Shown here piece by piece: positions 2,461-41,346 of a DNA stretch of 41,346 nt. The stretch is from a virus. Position numbers and translations under genes: made by a program. The DNA is taken from the IMG/VR virus record IMGVR_UViG_3300005069_000001; one strand, written 5' to 3'. The stretch's first letter is position 1, and each line of letters starts with the position of its first letter. Under the pieces are notes generated by a model. It searched no databases. It was not told the origin of the DNA and worked only from the letters and a program-made list of their open reading frames with translations.

Positions 2461-4426
2461 TTACTGCTCCCATATCTGGTGTATTGCGTAGGTTTATCTC
2501 TTGTAATTGTCTATCTAAATTAGCATCTTCGATTTCAGATATTGCTTTAATGCGGTCAATTTCTAACTTGTCTTGTTTAATTTCATTGTCTAACAACACT
2601 TTAAGCGTATCAATTTTATCTTTAGCATCGCTTATTTGTTTTTGTAATTCTAACTGTGCCTTGCCAAGTTCTAACTGCCCCATCATTAACGGGTCAGGCT
2701 GTGCTTGCGGTGCTTCTGGTGGGTCAGTTAAATAATAATCAGGGTTATCAATGCCCATTAATCGCAATACTTCTTTTCTTGTCCGTTTGCCGTCATAGAA
2801 TGGGTCTTGTGTTTTACTTTCAAAAAATTGCACTTGTGCCATCTGTCTAGCGTTACCGATTGCGTCAATATCTTTATTTGGCAAAAATACAATTTCTTTG
2901 TTTGCAAATACAGAACTATCAACCTCAATTCCTGTTAATTCTGCGTATCTTGCTGTATTAAAATATTCTTTGTTTGCTTCGACAAGTGATTGTATCTCTT
3001 TTTTAAACTCGACATAAAAGCGCTTTAATACCGCCCTTAATTTCTTAGTCGATTCCTCTGCCATAATCATTGCCGTCGTTGGCGCGGTGTTTGATGTAAA
3101 GTTTTCACTGTTCATTTGATTAAGATTTGCCAATGATGATGATTTACTATCAAGTAATTGCATCATACCCATAAGTGTTTGACTAGGTTCAGGATTAGGC
3201 ATAGGCATAAATGAATCACGGATTGATTGTCCTGTTGCTCTAATACCTTTCCATTCCCCCGCACTAAAATTAAATACACGGTCTTTGGTATTTATATCAG
3301 CACTAAATACACCGCCACCCAAAGCGGACTTTGCCCCTGCATCAATGGTTAAATTAAGAATTGATGATAAAGCATTCTGAGACATTTCTAAAATTGAACC
3401 AAAGCCTTTGCCCCAAAAGCAACTACTTGGCAAGAATGAATATTTACAATACCGAGGCTTTGCCTTGACAACAATAGCCTTAGATTTGTCATCATTTTTT
3501 TCAGAACGAATCACTTTTGTAAAGTTTTTTTCTAATCTTAACAATTCAGCTTTATCTTTTAAAACCCATGCGACATAAGGCTCAGGATAATCGTCGCCGT
3601 CTAAATCAAGTCGTAAACTCATTTCAATAATATCAAAATCTGTATCGTCTTCTTGTTCGTCGTCAGTCTCAGGCTCTTTGAAATACATTGATTCATATAG
3701 CGGTATAATATCCTCTTTGCGGTATGCACTACATTCGGATAACCGCTTAGCACCGTCAATCGTCTTTGCTTCTTTATTAACCACAAAATCAGTTGCTTTG
3801 ACTATTTTATGAATAGGGCGTTGCTCAACTGGACAATATGTGTATTTACGTAAAACAGTCCCTTGAACGCACAATAGCTTTGCTAATTCTTGCGTTTCTT
3901 CAACCCAATCAGGCATATCCTCTGTAAATTGATAATTGAGTATTTTAACAGCGTCCTCTGAATCCATTAATGCTTTATGATTTAAAATGCGTGCTTGCTT
4001 AATCGCACCATCAACAATAGGCTTAGCGTCCTGCCCCTCTGGTATTTGCCCAGTCATTGCAAGTGTAACAGCGGTATCCTCTTGACTCGGCACGTCCTTT
4101 GCATTTTTTGCTTTAACAGGCTTATCAAGCGGAAACTCATTGATAAATGTAGTTAAAAACTCATTGCTTGCATCGGTTAACAACATATAATGCAAACGAG
4201 AACCACCATTTACCCGAGCGGTACGCAAATATTCTTCTTCATTGTCACATACGCCAAGATAACGCTTCATCTTGTCATGATGCGGTTGACAATCGTTTAA
4301 ATCTCTATCGTAAAACTCGACAATTTGCGTTGCAATCGCTTTGACATCAAAGGAATCTAATATCTCAACAAGGTTATCTGTTTTATCAATATCGGCAGGT
4401 TTTAATTTATTTTTAATATCCAACAT
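2351..4426 (-). CDS. Portal protein (691 aa)
   Basis: Immediately downstream of terL (14-nt overlap) and of portal size. Long C-terminal helical segment (LELGKAQLELQKQISDAKDKIDTLKVLLDNEIKQDKLEIDRIKAISEIED) resembles a P22-type portal barrel, followed by a Q/N/G-rich tail. Confidence 0.8.
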   Translation of the reverse strand: MLDIKNKLKPADIDKTDNLVEILDSFDVKAIATQIVEFYDRDLNDCQPHHDKMKRYLGVCDNEEEYLRTARVNGGSRLHYMLLTDASNEFLTTFINEFPLDKPVKAKNAKDVPSQEDTAVTLAMTGQIPEGQDAKPIVDGAIKQARILNHKALMDSEDAVKILNYQFTEDMPDWVEETQELAKLLCVQGTVLRKYTYCPVEQRPIHKIVKATDFVVNKEAKTIDGAKRLSECSAYRKEDIIPLYESMYFKEPETDDEQEDDTDFDIIEMSLRLDLDGDDYPEPYVAWVLKDKAELLRLEKNFTKVIRSEKNDDKSKAIVVKAKPRYCKYSFLPSSCFWGKGFGSILEMSQNALSSILNLTIDAGAKSALGGGVFSADINTKDRVFNFSAGEWKGIRATGQSIRDSFMPMPNPEPSQTLMGMMQLLDSKSSSLANLNQMNSENFTSNTAPTTAMIMAEESTKKLRAVLKRFYVEFKKEIQSLVEANKEYFNTARYAELTGIEVDSSVFANKEIVFLPNKDIDAIGNARQMAQVQFFESKTQDPFYDGKRTRKEVLRLMGIDNPDYYLTDPPEAPQAQPDPLMMGQLELGKAQLELQKQISDAKDKIDTLKVLLDNEIKQDKLEIDRIKAISEIEDANLDRQLQEINLRNTPDMGAVNGQQDINNQQPNGNGAVPDGVVTNQRGNVPTGIPTA

Positions 4427-5891: not shown

Positions 5892-6312
5892 TAATCACAG
5901 GGTGTCCTAAACCCATTTCGAGGATATTTTTATCCGCAACCGTTATAAAACTATGGACATGACTATGATTTATATCCATTTTTGTATTAAACGCTCCAAT
6001 ATTGACGTGTTTACCTATTAAATCAAGGGCTTTTAAGGCGTTTGTGTGGTCTTTATCTTGTAAAGTCATATTATGCACTTTAACCGCTTGATTAAGTACC
6101 CATTGAGCGTTTATTTCGAGTTTCTGTTCACGTTCAGCTTTAAGTTCTGTTAGATATTCTTGTATAAGAGGTTTTGATAAGTTTTCAGAGGATATTTCCT
6201 GCGCTGTATTTTCACTATACCCAGCACGAATCGCCGCTTGTGTACCGTTTAAATCAATAAGGTATTCTTTGCAAAATAATTGTTGTTTATCTGTAAGTTT
6301 TTTCACTGTCAT
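5860..6312 (-). CDS. terS: Terminase small subunit (Terminase_2-type, 150 aa)
   Basis: MTVKKLTDKQQLFCKEYLIDLNGTQAAIRAGYSENTAQEISSENL is the classic Terminase_2 N-terminal HTH. The ATG at 6312-6310 is preferred to the longer hydrophobic extension in the ORF track. Confidence 0.85.
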   Translation of the reverse strand: MTVKKLTDKQQLFCKEYLIDLNGTQAAIRAGYSENTAQEISSENLSKPLIQEYLTELKAEREQKLEINAQWVLNQAVKVHNMTLQDKDHTNALKALDLIGKHVNIGAFNTKMDINHSHVHSFITVADKNILEMGLGHPVIIDNEASNASG

Positions 6313-6364
6313 AAATAAAAAATACACCACAATGAAAAAAAATGCAAACAAATAAAAAAAGGTG

Positions 6365-6393
6365 TTGACTTTACTGTAAAGTTACAGTATAAT
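6365..6393 (+). promoter_or_regulatory. Near-consensus sigma70 promoter with a palindromic operator in the spacer
   Basis: TTGACT (6365-6370), 17 nt, TATAAT (6388-6393). The spacer contains the perfect inverted repeat ACTGTAA-AG-TTACAGT (6373-6388). Confidence 0.8.
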
Positions 6394-6438
6394 GATTTTA
6401 CAAGGACGCAATCAAGCGGACGATTAAGGAGAACGACA

Positions 6439-7086
6439 ATGAATATCAATAATTGCCATGTAGTAGCAAGCACAAACCAAGCTTACGGACGCACATATAT
6501 CAATTTAATAGGCAAAGACGCAAGTTTTGCTGGTGACCGTAATTATAAAATATGGACTGACGGCACAAAAATTAATTTTGAAAAAGGTAAAGGCACGTTA
6601 TCACCTGCGTTTGAGGCATCTTTGGAGATTTTAAAAGATTTAAATGACAAGGGAGTTTTTGCAAGTAAATCACAAGCAGAGATTAACTATGATAACCTAC
6701 ATAACGAGGGTGGAGAGGGTTACAATCCACACCGTGACACGGCTAAAAATGATACAACTGATTTAAAGCCTGCAAGCGACACAACAACTAAATTATACAT
6801 AAACGCATACAAATCACATGATATTATGCACGGTGATTATTGTGTAGCTTTTACAAGCGAGCAAGACGCAATAAACGCATCATTTGATGATTACACCCAT
6901 GATGAGATTTTATGTGGTGCTTACAATGCCCCAGATGGATATACATTTACTGAGACTGGATTTGGAGATTGGGGTATATCAAAACTAGACAGCCAATATG
7001 TTGACTTTGCAATCAAAGATATGCAAGTCAACTTAGACGGCACAATAGCAATTGAAGGAGAATCTGTAAATTTGGTAAAAGCATGA
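6439..7086 (+). CDS. Acidic hypothetical protein (215 aa); candidate early anti-defence / DNA-mimic-type protein
   Basis: ATG with AAGGAG (6426-6431) 7 nt upstream. By my count about 33 D/E versus 18 K/R. No family recognised. Confidence 0.7.
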   Translation: MNINNCHVVASTNQAYGRTYINLIGKDASFAGDRNYKIWTDGTKINFEKGKGTLSPAFEASLEILKDLNDKGVFASKSQAEINYDNLHNEGGEGYNPHRDTAKNDTTDLKPASDTTTKLYINAYKSHDIMHGDYCVAFTSEQDAINASFDDYTHDEILCGAYNAPDGYTFTETGFGDWGISKLDSQYVDFAIKDMQVNLDGTIAIEGESVNLVKA

Positions 7087-7274
7087 CCCCCCAATCACAA
7101 ATCCAAACCCTAGAATCGCTAGGTATAACACGGTATCGCATTGCTTGCGATACTGGCATCAATCAAAAGACATTGTGTAATTGGTTAAATGGTAAAGCAC
7201 CGATGAAAAGCAATAGCAATGTTATTGTTTTAAATGATTATTATGAAAAATTAATGCAGGGGATGCAGGAATAA
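7083..7274 (+). CDS. Small HTH DNA-binding protein (63 aa), aca-like position
   Basis: ATGA start/stop overlap with the upstream gene. HTH-like segment ITRYRIACDTGINQKTLCNWLNGK. Confidence 0.7.
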   Translation: MTPQSQIQTLESLGITRYRIACDTGINQKTLCNWLNGKAPMKSNSNVIVLNDYYEKLMQGMQE

Positions 7275-7280
7275 TCTTGA

Positions 7281-7305
7281 GGGTGGGGACAAATTGTCCC
7301 TGCCC
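7281..7305 (+). terminator. Hairpin terminator after the acidic-protein/HTH operon
   Basis: gggtggggac-aaatt-gtccctgccc forms a 10-bp stem including two G.U pairs. The U-tract is weak (ttaaccgtatttta). Confidence 0.5.
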
Positions 7306-7366
7306 TTAACCGTATTTTAACAATTCCATGTTATATTTGTATTATAGTAAATGTAAGGGGTTATTT

Positions 7367-7597
7367 ATGTATAAATTTTTATTATCAGGTGATGCGTTTT
7401 TCAATAAATTAGCCTTTTGTGCCATGTTAATTTTTATAGGCTTTGTTTTAGGTGGTTGCAGTCCACGTCAACACGGCAATACACACCAGTTAGCCAATCA
7501 ATACACACCAGCTATCAGCACAGCACGGAGCGAATACGAGGCTATGCAAAAGTTTAAAGCCCAGCACGTGGCGTTTTATAGCAGTTTGCGTAAATAA
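7367..7597 (+). CDS. Small lipoprotein (76 aa); moron, possible superinfection-exclusion factor
   Basis: ATG at 7367 with AAGGGG (7355-7360) upstream. Signal peptide plus lipobox: MYKFLL...AMLIFIGFVLGG|CSPRQ. Confidence 0.65.
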   Translation: MYKFLLSGDAFFNKLAFCAMLIFIGFVLGGCSPRQHGNTHQLANQYTPAISTARSEYEAMQKFKAQHVAFYSSLRK

Positions 7598-11286: not shown

Positions 11287-11469
11287 TTAATTTTCGTTTT
11301 TGTTTATGAAGTCAATCATTGCGTTAATAAATTTACTCGTTGGATTATCGCTTATACCTCTTAAAAAACGGTAAACGTGGCGATATGTCACCCCAGTTTC
11401 TTTTGCAACCGTGCAAGGGGGGTAATTTTTCAACTTTTCTCTAATTTCATTTATATCTATTTTATCCAT
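11287..11469 (-). CDS. Small HTH regulator (60 aa)
   Basis: HTH-like CTVAKETGVTYRHVYRFLRG. First gene leftward of a divergent promoter region. Confidence 0.65.
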   Translation of the reverse strand: MDKIDINEIREKLKNYPPCTVAKETGVTYRHVYRFLRGISDNPTSKFINAMIDFINKNEN

Positions 11470-11503
11470 GTTAACCCTTTATAAATTATTTTAAATTATC
11501 CTC

Positions 11504-11537
11504 TTGACATGATGACATATATGTCGTATATTGTCAA
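11504..11537 (+). promoter_or_regulatory. Rightward sigma70 promoter of the recombination/replication operon with a 12-bp palindromic operator, and an inverted TTGACA for leftward transcription
   Basis: TTGACA (11504-11509), 17 nt, TATATT (11527-11532). The spacer contains GACATATATGTC (11514-11525). TGTCAA at 11532-11537 is TTGACA on the minus strand. Confidence 0.7.
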
Positions 11538-11580
11538 TACGATTTATAGGTCGTGATGTTAATCAATACTAGGAGTAAAA

Positions 11581-16337: not shown

Positions 16338-16813
16338 TATCTCACCTCTCTATTTTTATTAATTGCTTCGATTAATTCGTCTATTGTGTACATTGACACA
16401 ATAGATTTGTTGTTATCGCTTGGAATAGCAGAACGCCCCAGCCGATAATAATAAGCCTCTATATCCTGATATTCCTGTGCTACCTCAGCAAACGCTTGGA
16501 TAACATCAAGGCGTTGGGTGGTTGCAAAGATTTGATATTTGCTGAATTTAACCATAGTGCCTAAATAATGACTAAAATAAGATTTTAATTCTCTGCAATG
16601 AACATTGTGTAAAAAATTTTCTTTTAATAAGAATTTTTTATTTCTGTCGTTATTTGGCTCAATAATATTATCATAAATTGCTTCAATAATATTATCATAA
16701 CCGTTTTCTGATTTATTAGAAAATAGGTTGAAATGCCCTAGCTTTTCAATGGATAGATTATTCACGCTTTCAAATGACATATTTTCTAATTTTGTGATGT
16801 GTTTTTGCATCAT
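16337..16813 (-). CDS. Hypothetical protein (158 aa) with an in-frame micro-duplication
   Basis: ATGA overlap with the HTH gene. Peptide YDNIIEAIYDNIIEP is encoded by a tandem ~24-nt DNA repeat around 16658-16700. Confidence 0.6.
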   Translation of the reverse strand: MMQKHITKLENMSFESVNNLSIEKLGHFNLFSNKSENGYDNIIEAIYDNIIEPNNDRNKKFLLKENFLHNVHCRELKSYFSHYLGTMVKFSKYQIFATTQRLDVIQAFAEVAQEYQDIEAYYYRLGRSAIPSDNNKSIVSMYTIDELIEAINKNREVR

Positions 16814-17028
16814 TCCCCCCTTAAATTAAAAATAACTTGCTTGGCATAATCAAATTCAGACACAAAATAATCTGATAATTTTTGCAATGTTTTTGTATCA
16901 ATATTCGCAGTATCGTTCCTTGCAATCCGTGATACGGTCGCACCAGTAACACCAACCTTTGATGCAATAGCTTGATGATTGCGTTCTCGTTTTAATAAAT
17001 CACTTATTGTTTTGACTGTTAATAACAT
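16810..17028 (-). CDS. XRE-like HTH regulator (72 aa)
   Basis: ATG at 17028 with AAGGAG 5 nt upstream. HTH QAIASKVGVTGATVSRIARN. Confidence 0.7.
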   Translation of the reverse strand: MLLTVKTISDLLKRERNHQAIASKVGVTGATVSRIARNDTANIDTKTLQKLSDYFVSEFDYAKQVIFNLRGE

Positions 17029-17046
17029 TTTAACTCCTTTAATGTA

Positions 17047-17110
17047 TTTTATAAAAACATAATACATTTTATAAAAATATATTGCAAGTTATTTTTATGT
17101 GTGTTATTGT
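17047..17110. promoter_or_regulatory. Back-to-back divergent promoters sharing one palindromic -35 hexamer, plus two palindromic operators
   Basis: TTGCAA (17082-17087) is self-complementary. Rightward: 17 nt then TATTGT (17105-17110). Leftward: 17 nt then TATTAT (fwd ataata 17059-17064). TTTTATAAAA occurs at 17047-17056 and 17067-17076, 20 bp apart. Confidence 0.6.
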
Positions 17111-17135
17111 GATTTTGTTAATAAGGAGATACAAA

Positions 17136-17465
17136 ATGATTTTTAAGAATATAGAACTAGAAATTGATTTAACCATACACGGCATTTCAAAGCCATATTT
17201 TGTTTATGCAGAAGCCGACATTGAATTTGAATTTGATGAGGACTGGGACGTTTGGATTAAATCCATTGATGTAACCGAAGCAATCGTAGTTGACAGATTC
17301 GATGACGCTTGGCAGTTTAAAATCGTTCCTGATAAAAACAATTCGCTATATGCTGATTTACTAAAACAAATTGAGAAAGCCATTGAAGATAAAAACGGTG
17401 AAGAGTACATAGATTATTTTATTATTAACGAAATGGACGATTTGAAAGGGGGCAGACATGACTAA
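17136..17465 (+). CDS. Acidic hypothetical protein (109 aa)
   Basis: ATG at 17136 with AAGGAG (17124-17129). The longer TTG-initiated version in the ORF track is unlikely. Confidence 0.6.
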   Translation: MIFKNIELEIDLTIHGISKPYFVYAEADIEFEFDEDWDVWIKSIDVTEAIVVDRFDDAWQFKIVPDKNNSLYADLLKQIEKAIEDKNGEEYIDYFIINEMDDLKGGRHD

Positions 17466-17883
17466 AAGAATGATTGACGCTGATGAGTTAATTGAATTTA
17501 TATTTAATTGCGACAGTATTCTTGATTTATCATTGGGAATATTAAGCAAAATCAACGAACTCGCAACCCCTGCTGAACCACAGGAAAGCATTTTTGATGC
17601 TGACGGGTGGTGTTGGGATATGAATTTAGCACCGCATGACGGTTGTAATTTATTGCTAAAAAACTATAATTCAGATGATTTTTTTATAATGTATGATTGT
17701 TATAAAGAAACACAAGAGGATTATTGGCGGTCACATTCACTACCAAATGAGTGTGAACTATGGAATGGTTTTAAAACAGATGACATTATAATTAATAATG
17801 GTTTTAAAGATGTTAGCTTAGATGAATATGAAGAGGTTGCTTGGCAACCACTGCCAAAACTACCAACTGGGGGCAAAGAATGA
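17458..17883 (+). CDS. Hypothetical protein (141 aa)
   Basis: 8-nt overlap with the upstream gene. Trp/Cys-rich acidic protein. Confidence 0.6.
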   Translation: MTKRMIDADELIEFIFNCDSILDLSLGILSKINELATPAEPQESIFDADGWCWDMNLAPHDGCNLLLKNYNSDDFFIMYDCYKETQEDYWRSHSLPNECELWNGFKTDDIIINNGFKDVSLDEYEEVAWQPLPKLPTGGKE

Positions 17884-20077: not shown

Positions 20078-20143
20078 AATGTAGCACTTTTAAAACAAAT
20101 ATGCAACATTTTTATTGACATTTAGCAATTATCTTGCTAAAGT
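20078..20143. promoter_or_regulatory. Divergent promoter pair with an inverted-repeat operator
   Basis: Rightward TTGACA (20115-20120), 17 nt, TAAAGT (20138-20143), with TAGCAA-N5-TTGCTA (20123-20139) in the spacer. Leftward TTGCAT (fwd atgcaa 20101-20106), 17 nt, TACATT (fwd 20078-20083). Confidence 0.6.
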
Positions 20144-20168: not shown

Positions 20169-20363
20169 ATGATTTTAGATAAAGAACGCAAACGTCAAGA
20201 GTTTTTAAATGCTATGCACGCACAGGATATTGAAAAAATGTCACCACGAGCGGACAGTGAGTACAACCCACAAGAACATCGCATTAACGCCAAGAACACA
20301 ATTACATTGTGGGTATTGTTTTTGTCTGCGTGTGCTTTACTGGCTTGTATGGTGATACTATGA
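20169..20363 (+). CDS. Tail-anchored small membrane protein (64 aa)
   Basis: AAGGGAGAG SD. C-terminal TM ITLWVLFLSACALLACMVIL. Confidence 0.55.
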   Translation: MILDKERKRQEFLNAMHAQDIEKMSPRADSEYNPQEHRINAKNTITLWVLFLSACALLACMVIL

Positions 20364-20674
20364 AGCATAATCTGCATGACAAAAGCGAAGCTATTAGAAA
20401 AATGATTAATAACGGCATGATGTATAAAGAGATTGCATACGAATTAAAAGTTAATGAATACGCTTTAAAATCACACATATTAGATTACTTTGATGTCGTA
20501 AAGGTTGCAACGTATAAAAATAAAGTAAGAACATCACAAATAAAAGAAACAGATAAAAACGAGATTTTAGCAATGTATAAAGACGGCATTACTTGTGGCG
20601 TTATCGCCAAAACGTTTAATGTCACGTACAGTGCTATCTATAGTTTTCTTAAAAAGAATAAGGATAAATCATGA
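20360..20674 (+). CDS. Double-HTH protein, GcrA-N-like paralog 1 (104 aa)
   Basis: ATGA overlap. MKHNLHDKSEAIRKMINNGMMYKEIAYELKVNEYALKSHI, and a second HTH ILAMYKDGITCGVIAKTFNVTYSAIYSFLKK. Confidence 0.6.
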   Translation: MKHNLHDKSEAIRKMINNGMMYKEIAYELKVNEYALKSHILDYFDVVKVATYKNKVRTSQIKETDKNEILAMYKDGITCGVIAKTFNVTYSAIYSFLKKNKDKS

Positions 20675-21000
20675 AACATAATATGCACATTCATAATGAA
20701 CGCATCAAAGAGATGCTTGAAGCAGGATTACTTCACAAAACAATAGCGTACACATTAAATGTGAAGCCTTTTGTTTTGAGAGTACATTTAAAAACATGGT
20801 TTACAATTGAGAAAACCATAATTGTAACCTACAAAGAAAAACTTTTATCAAAAAATAATGCTTTGCAAGAGAACGAATCAGCCATTATGGAACTATACCG
20901 AAATGGTGTCAAAGTAAGAACGATTGCTGATAGGTACGGTGTACCGTATCATGCAACATTCCAATTCATAGCTTATCGCAAGCGGAGGGATAATGTCTAG
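20671..21000 (+). CDS. Double-HTH protein, GcrA-N-like paralog 2 (109 aa)
   Basis: MKHNMHIHNERIKEMLEAGLLHKTIAYTLNVKPFVLRVHL and IMELYRNGVKVRTIADRYGVPYHATFQFI. Same architecture as paralog 1. Confidence 0.6.
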   Translation: MKHNMHIHNERIKEMLEAGLLHKTIAYTLNVKPFVLRVHLKTWFTIEKTIIVTYKEKLLSKNNALQENESAIMELYRNGVKVRTIADRYGVPYHATFQFIAYRKRRDNV

Positions 21001-21364
21001 TGAATTTCTTATGGACAATCTTAAAGAAGTCAAGAGTATGTTAATTGGCAATAAGAGCCATAGATTTATAGCTAAACATTTTAATGTCACATTAGGGTGT
21101 TTATCAGGGTTTATTTATCGTAACTTAAAAAGTGTAAACACAATTTCAAGACCTAAAAAACAACCAAAGAAAGAGATTTATATACCTATGGTTATCGAAT
21201 TTGAAGCCAATCAATGTAAATTTCTTACTGGTGACAGACCATATATCCAGTGTAAGCATGACAGGATTAAAGATAGTCCATATTGCAAAGAACATCATGA
21301 TATTTGTTATATGAAAAATACTAAGAATATTAAAGTTGTGGATAAAGCGTGGGGGCAGAAATGA
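20993..21364 (+). CDS. GcrA-like transcription regulator (123 aa)
   Basis: N-terminal HTH LKEVKSMLIGNKSHRFIAKHFNVTLGCLSGFIYRNL. C-terminal CKFLTGDRPYIQCKHDRIKDSPYCKEHHDICY matches the GcrA motif CxWPxGD...FC...PYCxEH....Y as I recall it for Caulobacter GcrA. Confidence 0.65.
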   Translation: MSSEFLMDNLKEVKSMLIGNKSHRFIAKHFNVTLGCLSGFIYRNLKSVNTISRPKKQPKKEIYIPMVIEFEANQCKFLTGDRPYIQCKHDRIKDSPYCKEHHDICYMKNTKNIKVVDKAWGQK

Positions 21365-21762
21365 CTACAAAAGGACAAGAATTAATCGAGAGTGCAAAGG
21401 AAGCGTTAGTGTTTGCAAGGGGTGAGGTGAATGAGTGGCGTGCATGTAAAATAAAACCCTTATTCATTCCATTAAAAACCGAATATTTTAATGCGTTTAA
21501 AGATGGAACAAAAAAGCATGAATTTCGTGTTGGTAATCGTTGGAATGAAAAACATTGCACAGTAGGGCGTAAAGTTACGTTATCGAAAGGTTATGGCAAG
21601 CACGAACGGTTAAATGGTGTAATAACCAGTTTTGAAGTTGTTAGTGTTAATGACTTGCCAGATAAACAAAAAATAGACGTTTGTACTATTTATAATGGGG
21701 GCATTTACAATGTTTGCGATAGTTTTAAAATTAACAAAATAGGTATTGAGGTTCTGAAATGA
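21361..21762 (+). CDS. ASCH (PUA-fold) domain protein (133 aa)
   Basis: ATGA overlap. IKPLFIPLKTEYFNAFKDGTKKHEFRVGNRW...GRKVTLSKGYG is ASCH-like. Confidence 0.5.
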   Translation: MTTKGQELIESAKEALVFARGEVNEWRACKIKPLFIPLKTEYFNAFKDGTKKHEFRVGNRWNEKHCTVGRKVTLSKGYGKHERLNGVITSFEVVSVNDLPDKQKIDVCTIYNGGIYNVCDSFKINKIGIEVLK

Positions 21763-22016
21763 TGAAACAAAATGAAATAACCTATATCAGTCATTGCTTC
21801 ACTGGTAAAATATCGCAAGAGTCCGCTGAAAGTATAGTGACACATGAAAAGTTATATGAAATGTACGAGATACAGAAAGCAATGAATATTGGTAAAGATG
21901 CCATTATGACAATGCACGAGATGGTCATTGACGAATTAAGGCAAGAAATAAAAAACTATAAAATCTGTTTTGGTTTAATTTGTGCATTATCAATATTCGT
22001 GGCGGTGGTGAGTTAG
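21759..22016 (+). CDS. Hypothetical protein with a C-terminal TM (85 aa)
   Basis: ATGA overlap. C-terminal ICFGLICALSIFVAVV. Confidence 0.5.
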   Translation: MMKQNEITYISHCFTGKISQESAESIVTHEKLYEMYEIQKAMNIGKDAIMTMHEMVIDELRQEIKNYKICFGLICALSIFVAVVS

Positions 22017-22018
22017 CG

Positions 22019-22276
22019 ATGCGGATATACGATATTTCATACTTTCGTAAAGATAAAAAGACCATTGAAACTAAACCTGTAAAGGCTGAAACAATGACAA
22101 GGGCTGTGCAAAAATTACTTGATACGGCAAAGCATCATGGTACTGAAATATCGTCTATATCTGCAACAATTAAAGGTAGTCAGGGCGTGCAAAGATTTTG
22201 CGATGTATGTTTAAAGACAGAGGCTGTTTATGGTTATAAAGATAATTTAATGAAGTGTGAGGAATGCAGAAAATGA
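22019..22276 (+). CDS. Hypothetical protein with a C-terminal CxxC...CxxC zinc-ribbon-like motif (85 aa)
   Basis: ATG at 22019. CDVCLKTEAVYGYKDNLMKCEEC. Confidence 0.5.
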   Translation: MRIYDISYFRKDKKTIETKPVKAETMTRAVQKLLDTAKHHGTEISSISATIKGSQGVQRFCDVCLKTEAVYGYKDNLMKCEECRK

Positions 22277-40936: not shown

Positions 40937-41346
40937 TTAAATTCCTGTCGTGTTGTTAACTGAATGAAGATTGATTGCAACAAGATATTTTGCATACGCC
41001 CCAACCTCGTTTGATGGGTCTTGAACAAAGCCAATTATTCGTAATTGTTTTGTCGCACCAGTACCTACTGATGTTGTACTAATTTGAGCCCCAGAATTAC
41101 CGTAAACAGTTTCGCCTGCGACAGCAAATGTGAAGTCTGCATTTGCACCAACATCGCCAGTAGCAGGAGTCGCACTTGCATCACCTTGAATAGCGTAAAT
41201 TGTATCAGGGTGATTTGATACATAAACATAACGCTCAGTTGATGCTGCACGATAAACGGTTGAGTCATTCGTTACTGCTTCAACGCTTGTAACAATACCA
41301 GTGACATAATTTGTCGCCCCTGCTGTTGCACGAATAACATCAGGAA
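40937..41346 (-). CDS. C-terminal part of the junction-spanning 188-aa head-module protein (see 1..248)
   Basis: Frame is open from the window end to TAA at 40939-40937. Ends ...GATKQLRIIGFVQDPSNEVGAYAKYLVAINLHSVNNTTGI*. Confidence 0.6.
   Translation of the reverse strand, partial: PDVIRATAGATNYVTGIVTSVEAVTNDSTVYRAASTERYVYVSNHPDTIYAIQGDASATPATGDVGANADFTFAVAGETVYGNSGAQISTTSVGTGATKQLRIIGFVQDPSNEVGAYAKYLVAINLHSVNNTTGI
41256..41346. repeat. Right copy of the exact 91-bp end duplication
   Basis: Base-for-base identical to 1-91. Confidence 0.95.

Follow-up and report, generated by a model that had tools for sequence, protein, structure and literature searches.

In acr-aca operons, an inverted repeat lies within the core promoter and the cognate Aca represses transcription (PMC9410906). 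An extension of this arrangement comprises RNA motifs located in leaders and intergenic regions, together with many unannotated co-regulated genes (PMC13551039). Aca11, a protein of 63 amino acids (aa), recognizes, as a dimer, an inverted repeat that overlaps its own promoter (PMC12658196). In T4-type phages, a short conserved regulatory sequence (PeSL) flanks, and recurs between, variable orphan genes, and its repeats offer homology for the gain or loss of cassettes (PMC2839356; PMC4122927). Here we describe an operon at 6365-7309 of the virus record IMGVR_UViG_3300005069_000001 in IMG/VR (41,346 nt; this whole stretch of DNA is referred to as the window), in which a promoter with an embedded palindrome is followed by a gene for a 215-aa orphan protein (the cargo) and a gene for a 63-aa helix-turn-helix (HTH) protein. 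Comparison with related loci suggests, with somewhat better than even probability, that it is a self-contained, negatively autoregulated cassette with a swappable cargo slot, following an acr-aca-like logic. The cassette consists of the following features:

6365-6393, plus strand: sigma-70-type promoter TTGACT-17-TATAAT (-35 at 6365-6370, -10 at 6388-6393), matching 11 of 12 consensus positions

6372-6389: putative dyad-symmetric operator TACTGTAA-AG-TTACAGTA, a perfect 8+8 inverted repeat in the promoter spacer

6394-6438, plus strand: 5' leader of 45 nt with a short hairpin, CGC-AATCAA-GCG (6407-6418), and a Shine-Dalgarno sequence, AAGGAG (6426-6431)

6439-7086, plus strand: cargo gene, encoding a 215-aa orphan protein of three modules, namely an N-domain (residues ~1-76), a NEGGEGYNP motif (~78-100), and an acidic C-domain (117-215)

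7083-7274, plus strand: gene for the 63-aa XRE-type HTH protein, a putative autorepressor, with an ATGA overlap with the cargo stop

7131-7155, plus strand: 10-bp hairpin CGGTATCGCA-TTGCT-TGCGATACTG inside the HTH open reading frame (ORF), with frozen synonymous sites in its arms

7277-7309, plus strand: terminator-like hairpin with a T-rich tail reaching 7319, detected by a terminator scan, which ends the operon

A previous reading of this DNA, made from the letters alone (the sequence-only reading), had called the promoter the best in the window and described a perfect 7+7 inverted repeat in its spacer. Both elements are present. However, the promoter ties with two other sites, since a score of 11/12 is reached at 6365-6393, 11504-11532, and 20912-20884, and the repeat is 8+8 in length. 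The palindrome overlaps the -10 hexamer by 2 nt, its final TA being the initial TA of the hexamer. Taken alone, the promoter match and the palindrome are both within what chance would produce in this genome: promoter-like sites are as frequent as in shuffled sequences (88 versus 86.8 expected; 93 versus 92.5), and the window contains 12 perfect 8+8 inverted repeats with a gap of at most 6 nt, compared with 11.3 +/- 4.2 in Markov-1 simulations. Thus, the significance of the palindrome does not come from the palindrome alone but from its position, conservation, and covariation in related loci. As it lies upstream of the expected transcription start, its symmetry is a feature of the DNA, as expected for the site of a dimeric binding protein. 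No second operator-like site within three mismatches was found elsewhere in the genome; therefore, the only full putative operator of the HTH protein in this genome is at its own promoter.

To characterize the locus, we compared about a dozen independent metagenomic phage loci recovered via homologs of the 63-aa protein (individual loci carry L numbers). The promoter, operator, leader, and HTH gene are conserved in approximately 12 loci, and both promoter hexamers are kept in at least eight divergent ones, whereas the co-transcribed genes are mutually unrelated. Between promoter and HTH gene, the different loci encode one protein of 215, 74, or 194 aa (the last with a poly-Glu run), two proteins (113+101, 68+77, 68+86, 70+48, about 96+48, 150+80, 90+80, or 142+80 aa), or none, and further unrelated genes are sometimes found 3' of the HTH gene. 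The coupling of cargo stop and HTH start is kept in most loci. In every locus with its left flank present, the HTH operon is divergent from the small-terminase gene (terS), and the terminase and portal families vary across loci (Terminase_2, Terminase_6, and Terminase_3; SU10, P22, and Head-tail_con portals). Scans of IMG/VR and JGI metagenomes with DNA patterns of the promoter plus leader found nothing, and a 16-mer leader scan of IMG/VR gave 85 matches, two of which were genuine and already in the set.

In all loci, the palindrome lies between -35 and -10 in an unchanged register, and it occurs in at least six sequence variants, distributed as follows:

TACTGTAA-NN-TTACAGTA: the window, L008, and L010

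TACTAAAC-TA-ATTTAGTA: L013

TAGTATAA-AG-TTATACTA: L015 and L017-L019

TACTCTTA-AA-TAAGAGTA: L016/L035 and, independently, L042

TACTTTTA-AA-TAAAAGTA: L039

(TAC)TCTAA-CT-TTAGAGTA: L044

In an alignment of eight distinct promoters, 98.4% of the cells in the palindrome are complementary. Two-sided changes are observed at four of the eight palindrome pairs, and one position shows all four pair types. None of 500 shuffles reached the covariation score, and sliding the partner by 1-3 columns reduces pairing to 22-50%.

Comparative analysis of the HTH proteins revealed that helix 2 (TRYRIxxDTG) is invariant and that residues 27-33 of helix 3, the recognition helix, are the most variable part of the family. 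The operators are associated with the following helix-3 sequences:

CTGTAA operator: IN[QE]KTLCNW, in three phages whose HTH proteins are 77-81% identical

CTCTTA operator: [SN]QDQLRRW, in two independent loci

GTATAA operator: IPKMQLCNW

CTAAA operator: INQMTLSNW

CTTTTA operator: LSEATLHRV

CTCTAA operator: ITQQSLHNW

Identical helix-3 sequences go with identical operators, and each remaining helix-3 variant has an operator of its own. Such pairing would be expected of an HTH protein that reads the dyad, although it is a correlation and not a proof, and it supports a model in which a dimeric HTH protein would repress its own promoter. The sequence-only reading had proposed an acr/aca-style autoregulated counter-defence locus. 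Its regulatory half is well supported by the conservation set against cargo turnover, the two-arm covariation, and the pairing of operator and helix 3; its counter-defence half is not supported.

The ORF at 7083-7274 and its ATGA junction were both confirmed, and the HTH assignment is supported by a sub-threshold match to Pfam HTH_19 (E-value = 0.0028), by PHROG transcriptional-regulator families (E-value = 5e-5), and by an AF2 model of high confidence (pLDDT 91) with four helices (residues 3-12, 17-24, 28-35, and 45-62). We identified 22 homologs in metagenomic contigs, with 52-100% identity. Structural neighbors of the model in Foldseek, at TM scores of 0.6-0.76, include HNF1-POU, HipB, HigA, 434 Cro, P22 C2, and C.Kpn2I, as well as the DNA-bound N-terminal domain of AcrIIA15. 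The top match was Aca11 (9lx2; E-value = 0.16, TM about 0.6), statistically tied with HNF1, HipB, HigA, the AcrIIA15 N-terminal domain, 434 Cro, and C.Kpn2I. According to the model, the 63-aa protein has a generic XRE / lambda-repressor-like fold.

Conservation at the nucleotide level was also seen inside the HTH gene. In the arms of the hairpin at 7131-7155, codons are fixed across 14 divergent HTH genes (CGG in 14, TAT in 14, GAT in 14, CGC in 13, and ACT in 13), whereas loop codons and other invariant residues of these genes use two to four codons each. A two-sided compensatory change is present in L042 (CGC to CGG with TGC to TCC), G-C to G-U changes occur in three or four loci, and RNAalifold independently predicts the same hairpin. 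The hairpin that the sequence-only reading had placed after the HTH gene corresponds to the terminator-like structure at 7277-7309. The same terminator hairpin is found in L008, and canonical terminators occupy the equivalent position in L016 and L036.

Based on these observations, a mechanism can be proposed. The strong host-type promoter would fire on phage entry, giving a transcript that carries the leader, the cargo slot (occupied here by the 215-aa orphan), and the translationally coupled HTH gene. A dimer of the HTH protein would occupy the 18-bp dyad between -35 and -10, occlude RNA polymerase, and shut the operon off. Shut-off after co-production of cargo and HTH protein would result in an early burst of cargo; it would also limit strong rightward transcription into the convergent VRR-NUC and primase genes, with the terminator as a backup. 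In this scheme, we infer the binding of the HTH protein at 6372-6389 and the ensuing repression, the early timing of the promoter, and the action of the cargo on the host.

Similar to acr-aca operons, in which anti-CRISPR genes are combined with an Aca autorepressor (Aca1-Aca14), the locus has a strong promoter with an inverted repeat in its core, a small HTH gene that comes last or nearly last in the operon, and small upstream genes that turn over. The conserved 5' leader, which is also found between cargo genes in a relative, is comparable to the Aca RNA motifs, and many co-regulated genes are likewise unannotated. By analogy, the locus may work like an acr-aca operon. On the other hand, none of the associated genes here encodes a known Acr or anti-defence protein, sequence similarity of the HTH protein to Acas with solved structures and to Aca11 is lacking, at least six operator specificities exist within one HTH family, and the locus has a fixed place beside terS. 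Because Pfam, PHROG, PDB-sequence, and Foldseek searches linked no known anti-defence gene to the operon, which is the defining association of the class, we do not file the locus as a member of the acr-aca class. The closest known proteins are Aca11 (Streptococcus, PDB 9lx2) and the N-terminal HTH of AcrIIA15; Aca11 shares with the 63-aa protein its length (63 aa) and a four-helix XRE-type fold. However, direct comparison with Aca11 gave an hhalign probability of 3.8% and no BLASTP alignment, and the repeat of Aca11 is 22 bp according to the abstract (24 nt printed in the methods; PMC12658196), versus 18 bp here.

As in the PeSL arrangement, a regulatory sequence, here the leader, precedes both cargo genes in L008. 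The repeated unit differs, since PeSL provides a promoter and a terminator stem-loop for each gene, whereas the unit observed here comprises the leader and ribosome-binding site, downstream of a single promoter that is under operator control and has its own putative repressor, and its repetition is limited to L008 and L009. The C proteins of restriction-modification systems and Cro are also small dimeric XRE HTH proteins which autoregulate via palindromes overlapping their own promoter. Unlike these systems, the operon contains no restriction or methylase genes, and the divergent gene is terS instead of a CI-type repressor.

The second component of the cassette is the 215-aa protein. Its 33 Asp/Glu and 18 Lys/Arg residues agree exactly with the counts in the sequence-only reading, and, as stated there, it belongs to no recognizable family: no Pfam family was found (including those of Ocr and ArdA), with one weak PHROG match, no PADLOC match, and no relative in IMG/VR. 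The description "very acidic" was overstated, as the net charge is -15 (pI 4.62), the protein ranks sixth in acidity among 51 ORFs, and most of the charge falls in residues 117-215 (net -12), residues 1-100 being near neutral (net -2). Ocr (T7 gp0.3) has a charge of roughly -0.25 per residue. The cargo is similar to Ocr and ArdA in being probably early and in its net negative charge, but it carries only about -0.07 per residue, with the charge confined to the C-terminal half and a near-neutral N-terminal domain. The AF2 model is confident for residues 1-75 only, and the acidic C-terminal half is modeled at pLDDT <60. Searches of PDB sequences by phmmer and profile, using the 215-aa protein and an N-domain profile, returned nothing meaningful, and Foldseek of the model against PDB and BFVD found no match, a fold test which is uninformative for the acidic half because the model is poor there. 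No counterpart among Ocr, ArdA, or Acr proteins was found in sequence or structure, the latter with low confidence for the C-terminal half. A role as a DNA mimic is unsupported by charge density, Pfam, PDB sequence search, and Foldseek, the fold comparison being limited to the well-modeled part.

Each of the three modules of the cargo occurs elsewhere as, or within, separate small proteins. The N-domain is found as stand-alone proteins of 75-120 aa that form a rare and entirely unannotated family, NEGGEGYNP-type motifs also occur at the C-termini of unrelated small proteins, and residues 117-215 resemble a stand-alone 102-aa protein. In addition, a near-identical copy of the 215-aa protein lacks 22 residues of the C-domain. 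N-domain homologs in two other genomes are located between replication and packaging genes, in a phage or prophage-like region (one on a Pedomonas contig); no adjacent HTH gene was seen in the contexts of N-domain homologs. The N-domain alignment was too divergent for scanning loci. Upstream of one stand-alone N-domain homolog (P0002; L001, 400-800), several TTGGTTACAA-like motif copies resembling iterons were observed, and L001 also has a good promoter followed by a 10-bp inverted repeat, TATATCAAGA...TCTTGATATA. Among the cargo of relatives, a protein of ~190 aa in L020 (2415-2999) contains 14 consecutive glutamates and is locally far more acidic than the 215-aa protein. A candidate assignment of the 142-aa cargo of L044 as RuvC-like was discarded, with no Pfam support.

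Regarding function, counter-defence or host takeover is the most likely class for the cargo, at a likelihood somewhat short of even, and a counter-defence role of the 215-aa protein would be a reasonable guess. A more far-reaching proposal, which we regard as rather unlikely, is that the HTH proteins represent an undescribed Aca-like regulator family in which operator and recognition helix would have diversified together, yielding six or more specificities orthogonal to one another, driven by pressure to avoid being cross-repressed by homologous repressors that co-resident phages or hosts encode, in an arms race of the "anti-anti-defence" type. Under this proposal, the leader and the frozen hairpin would provide RNA-level control or sites for cassette exchange, and the slot would be a reservoir of entirely new counter-defence proteins.

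Upstream of the cassette and within its leader, additional conserved elements were found. Two of them lie between terS and the promoter:

6326-6364, plus strand: A-rich block that contains the motif ATGCAAA and precedes the -35 hexamer, kept in all related loci despite different terS families

6319-6347, minus strand: candidate leftward terS/late promoter TTGCAT (6347..6342)-17-TATTTT (6324..6319), read from the sequences and under the scan threshold (8/12)

The A-rich block looks like an UP element, and it also holds the -35 of the candidate leftward promoter. The leftward promoter-like element is conserved as TTG(C/A)(A/C)(T/A)-16/17-TATTTT, its -35 being TTGACT in L013 and TTGACA in L039, and the whole 126-bp block from terS to the cassette is conserved irrespective of terS family. 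The predicted leftward start is at or adjoining the terS ATG, which has no Shine-Dalgarno sequence, and the late terS transcript could be leaderless. A second minus-strand promoter match, TTGATT-18-TATACT (6415..6386), overlaps the palindrome.

The leader is retained in L020 and L021, in which the HTH protein is only 51-53% identical and the promoter spacer differs. It is repeated ahead of the second cargo gene in L008 (at 3659) and L009, and other multi-gene loci have different intergenic hairpins. The second copy in L008 (ACAAGGACGCAATCAAGCGGACGATAAGGAGAACGACAATG, within 3645-3700) lies between the two cargo genes, which gives the impression that an insertion brought in a gene, together with a variant leader, between the promoter and an older leader. 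The leader hairpin is weak (about -3 to -8 kcal/mol, z about -2), with one compensatory change in L008 and a stronger hairpin at the same place in L039. Conservation of the leader as the -35 of TTGATT-18-TATACT was rejected as the main reason, since L008 and L039 lack TTGATT and a copy of the leader also occurs between cargo genes. It may instead be an RNA target, an mRNA stabilizer, or merely homology for cassette exchange, in which last case it would resemble the PeSL elements.

Several observations weigh against the view of a dedicated acr-aca-like cassette. The HTH is the first gene in L015, and cargo can lie downstream of the HTH gene. The 21 cargo proteins of the relatives have no significant Pfam match, no match to known anti-CRISPR or anti-defence proteins, and no match to a solved structure; three of them fall into PHROG families, all of unknown function, and a single one weakly matches RmrT in PADLOC (E-value = 4e-4), the other 20 having no match. 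The Foldseek matches of the 63-aa protein are generic and non-significant (all E-values > 0.1), owing to the small size of the domain, and a profile of the HTH family found nothing below an E-value of 0.3 among all PDB chains, including solved Aca structures. Finally, a palindrome within a promoter near small HTH genes may be the general early-operon control of this phage. Two further sites of this kind were observed. At 11504-11537, overlapping divergent promoters (11500-11540; TTGACA-17-TATATT on the plus strand and TTGACA-17-CATCAT on the minus strand) are centered on GACATATATGTC. This region, which adjoins a gene for a 60-aa HTH protein (11287-11469, minus strand) heading the minus-strand replication operon, is probably a second autoregulated control region; beyond the HTH motif, no kinship between the 60-aa and 63-aa proteins was detectable. 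At 20115-20143, ATGCAA accompanies TTGACA-17-TAAAGT, with the palindrome TTTAGCAA-TTATC-TTGCTAAA (20121-20141) in the spacer, and this promoter precedes a small-gene operon (20169-22276), two of whose products are HTH-like (121 and 109 aa). The design is therefore not specific to anti-defence loci, and any inference of function from architecture alone is weakened.

It is conceivable, though doubtful, that the HTH protein is a general early/late switch (Cro- or controller-like) that, bound in the intergenic block, silences early genes read rightward and, directly or not, allows terS and the late genes to be read leftward, the variable genes being ordinary early genes. Such a role would fit the 126-bp block and its conserved leftward promoter-like element, the minus-strand promoter match overlapping the palindrome, the recurrence of the palindrome-in-promoter design at two other operons, and the presence of the HTH in every relative, like a core regulator. 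However, the operator is centered ~68 bp upstream of the point where leftward transcription would begin and does not fall within the core of the leftward promoter; the -35 TTGATT is absent in L008 and L039, and the genome has a single operator. Moreover, the module moves among phages with unrelated packaging modules and its cargo turns over completely, which is atypical of a core developmental switch. A moron-type hotspot, whose cargo would protect the infected cell or lysogen from other phages (superinfection exclusion, phage-encoded defence) or alter host physiology rather than counter host defence, seems improbable. A near-consensus promoter under tight self-repression would be better suited to a transient burst than to constitutive expression during lysogeny; the scanned ORFs of the window included no integrase and no relative was found integrated in host genomes, the sole match in genome collections being a 43-kb stand-alone contig that represents a whole phage binned into a Chthoniobacter metagenome-assembled genome. 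The lack of PADLOC matches for the 215-aa protein and 20 of the 21 cargo proteins also argues against a hotspot of this type. What speaks for it is the position of the cassette between replication and packaging modules, against the direction of its neighbors, with its own promoter and terminator and a conserved lipoprotein gene alongside, as well as the RmrT match of one relative's cargo and the location of N-domain homologs, which other phages carry between the same modules and which also occur in the Pedomonas prophage-like region.

Two other explanations were rejected. Gene order, a small XRE HTH, an operator in the promoter, and translational coupling would all fit a higBA-type toxin-antitoxin system, in which the toxin gene comes first, the HTH antitoxin second, and a palindrome mediates autoregulation, and HigA and HipB are among the Foldseek neighbors. 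Such a system is very unlikely here, as the upstream partners show no relationship to one another, vary in size from 48 to 215 aa, and are absent in L015, a 63-aa four-helix HTH protein has no extra domain to neutralize many unrelated toxins, and no cargo matches a toxin family except for the weak RmrT case. The remaining possibility, which we consider extremely improbable, is that the HTH protein has nothing to do with the palindrome, which would be either a LexA (SOS) box of the host or a chance occurrence. Perfect 8+8 palindromes do occur at chance frequency in the genome, and TACTGT...ACAGTA resembles the ends of the gammaproteobacterial LexA box, but the spacing here is CTGT-N6-ACAG and not N8. 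In addition, the relatives replace CTGT/ACAG by CTCT/AGAG, GTAT/ATAC, CTAA/TTAG, or CTTT/AAAG, always symmetrically and always with a changed helix 3. Arms that covary with a phage HTH would not be expected of a host LexA site.

The main value of these loci, which come from low-GC phages known from metagenomes, is in their co-diversified operator/HTH pairs and their pool of orphan cargo genes. If the HTH protein is confirmed as the repressor, the locus would provide a new anchor for guilt-by-association searches, with more than 20 unrelated orphan proteins in one burst-expressed slot of uncultured phages. It would also offer a natural set of related repressor/operator pairs usable as orthogonal genetic parts, and a tractable example of a recognition helix and a DNA site that evolve together. 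Caution is needed in treating a strong promoter, a palindrome, and a small HTH gene as anti-defence by default, considering that the same design is present at two other operons and that no cargo has been tied to a defence system.

Downstream of the terminator, a neighboring unit was detected:

7317-7597, plus strand: promoter TTAACA-17-TATTAT (7317-7345) and a gene for a 76-aa lipoprotein (7367-7597; lipobox LGGC)

This gene is kept after the terminator in L008, L016, L036, L040, and L044 although the cargo differs, and its product has no family match. It is probably a separate accessory gene, which could function in exclusion or act at the membrane.

The window itself is a complete tailed-phage genome with a GC content of 35%. 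A direct repeat of 91 bp at its ends (1-91 = 41256-41346) indicates that the genome was circularly assembled and is complete, with a unique length of 41,255 bp. Similarity to the DNA of GenBank phages was limited to terS fragments. The rightward cassette is flanked on both sides by minus-strand gene blocks: on the left by terS (a Pfam Terminase_2 member whose true start is near 6312) and by genes for the large terminase, a portal of the SU10 type, and structural proteins, and on the right by a VRR-NUC nuclease and a primase/helicase, which are convergent with the cassette. Another candidate switch region is present at 16810-17082, where a minus-strand gene encodes an 85-aa repressor-like HTH protein. 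A divergent plus-strand operon next to it encodes two very acidic small proteins (17082-17465, pI 4.4; 17458-17883, pI 4.1), both of which are more acidic than the 215-aa cargo.

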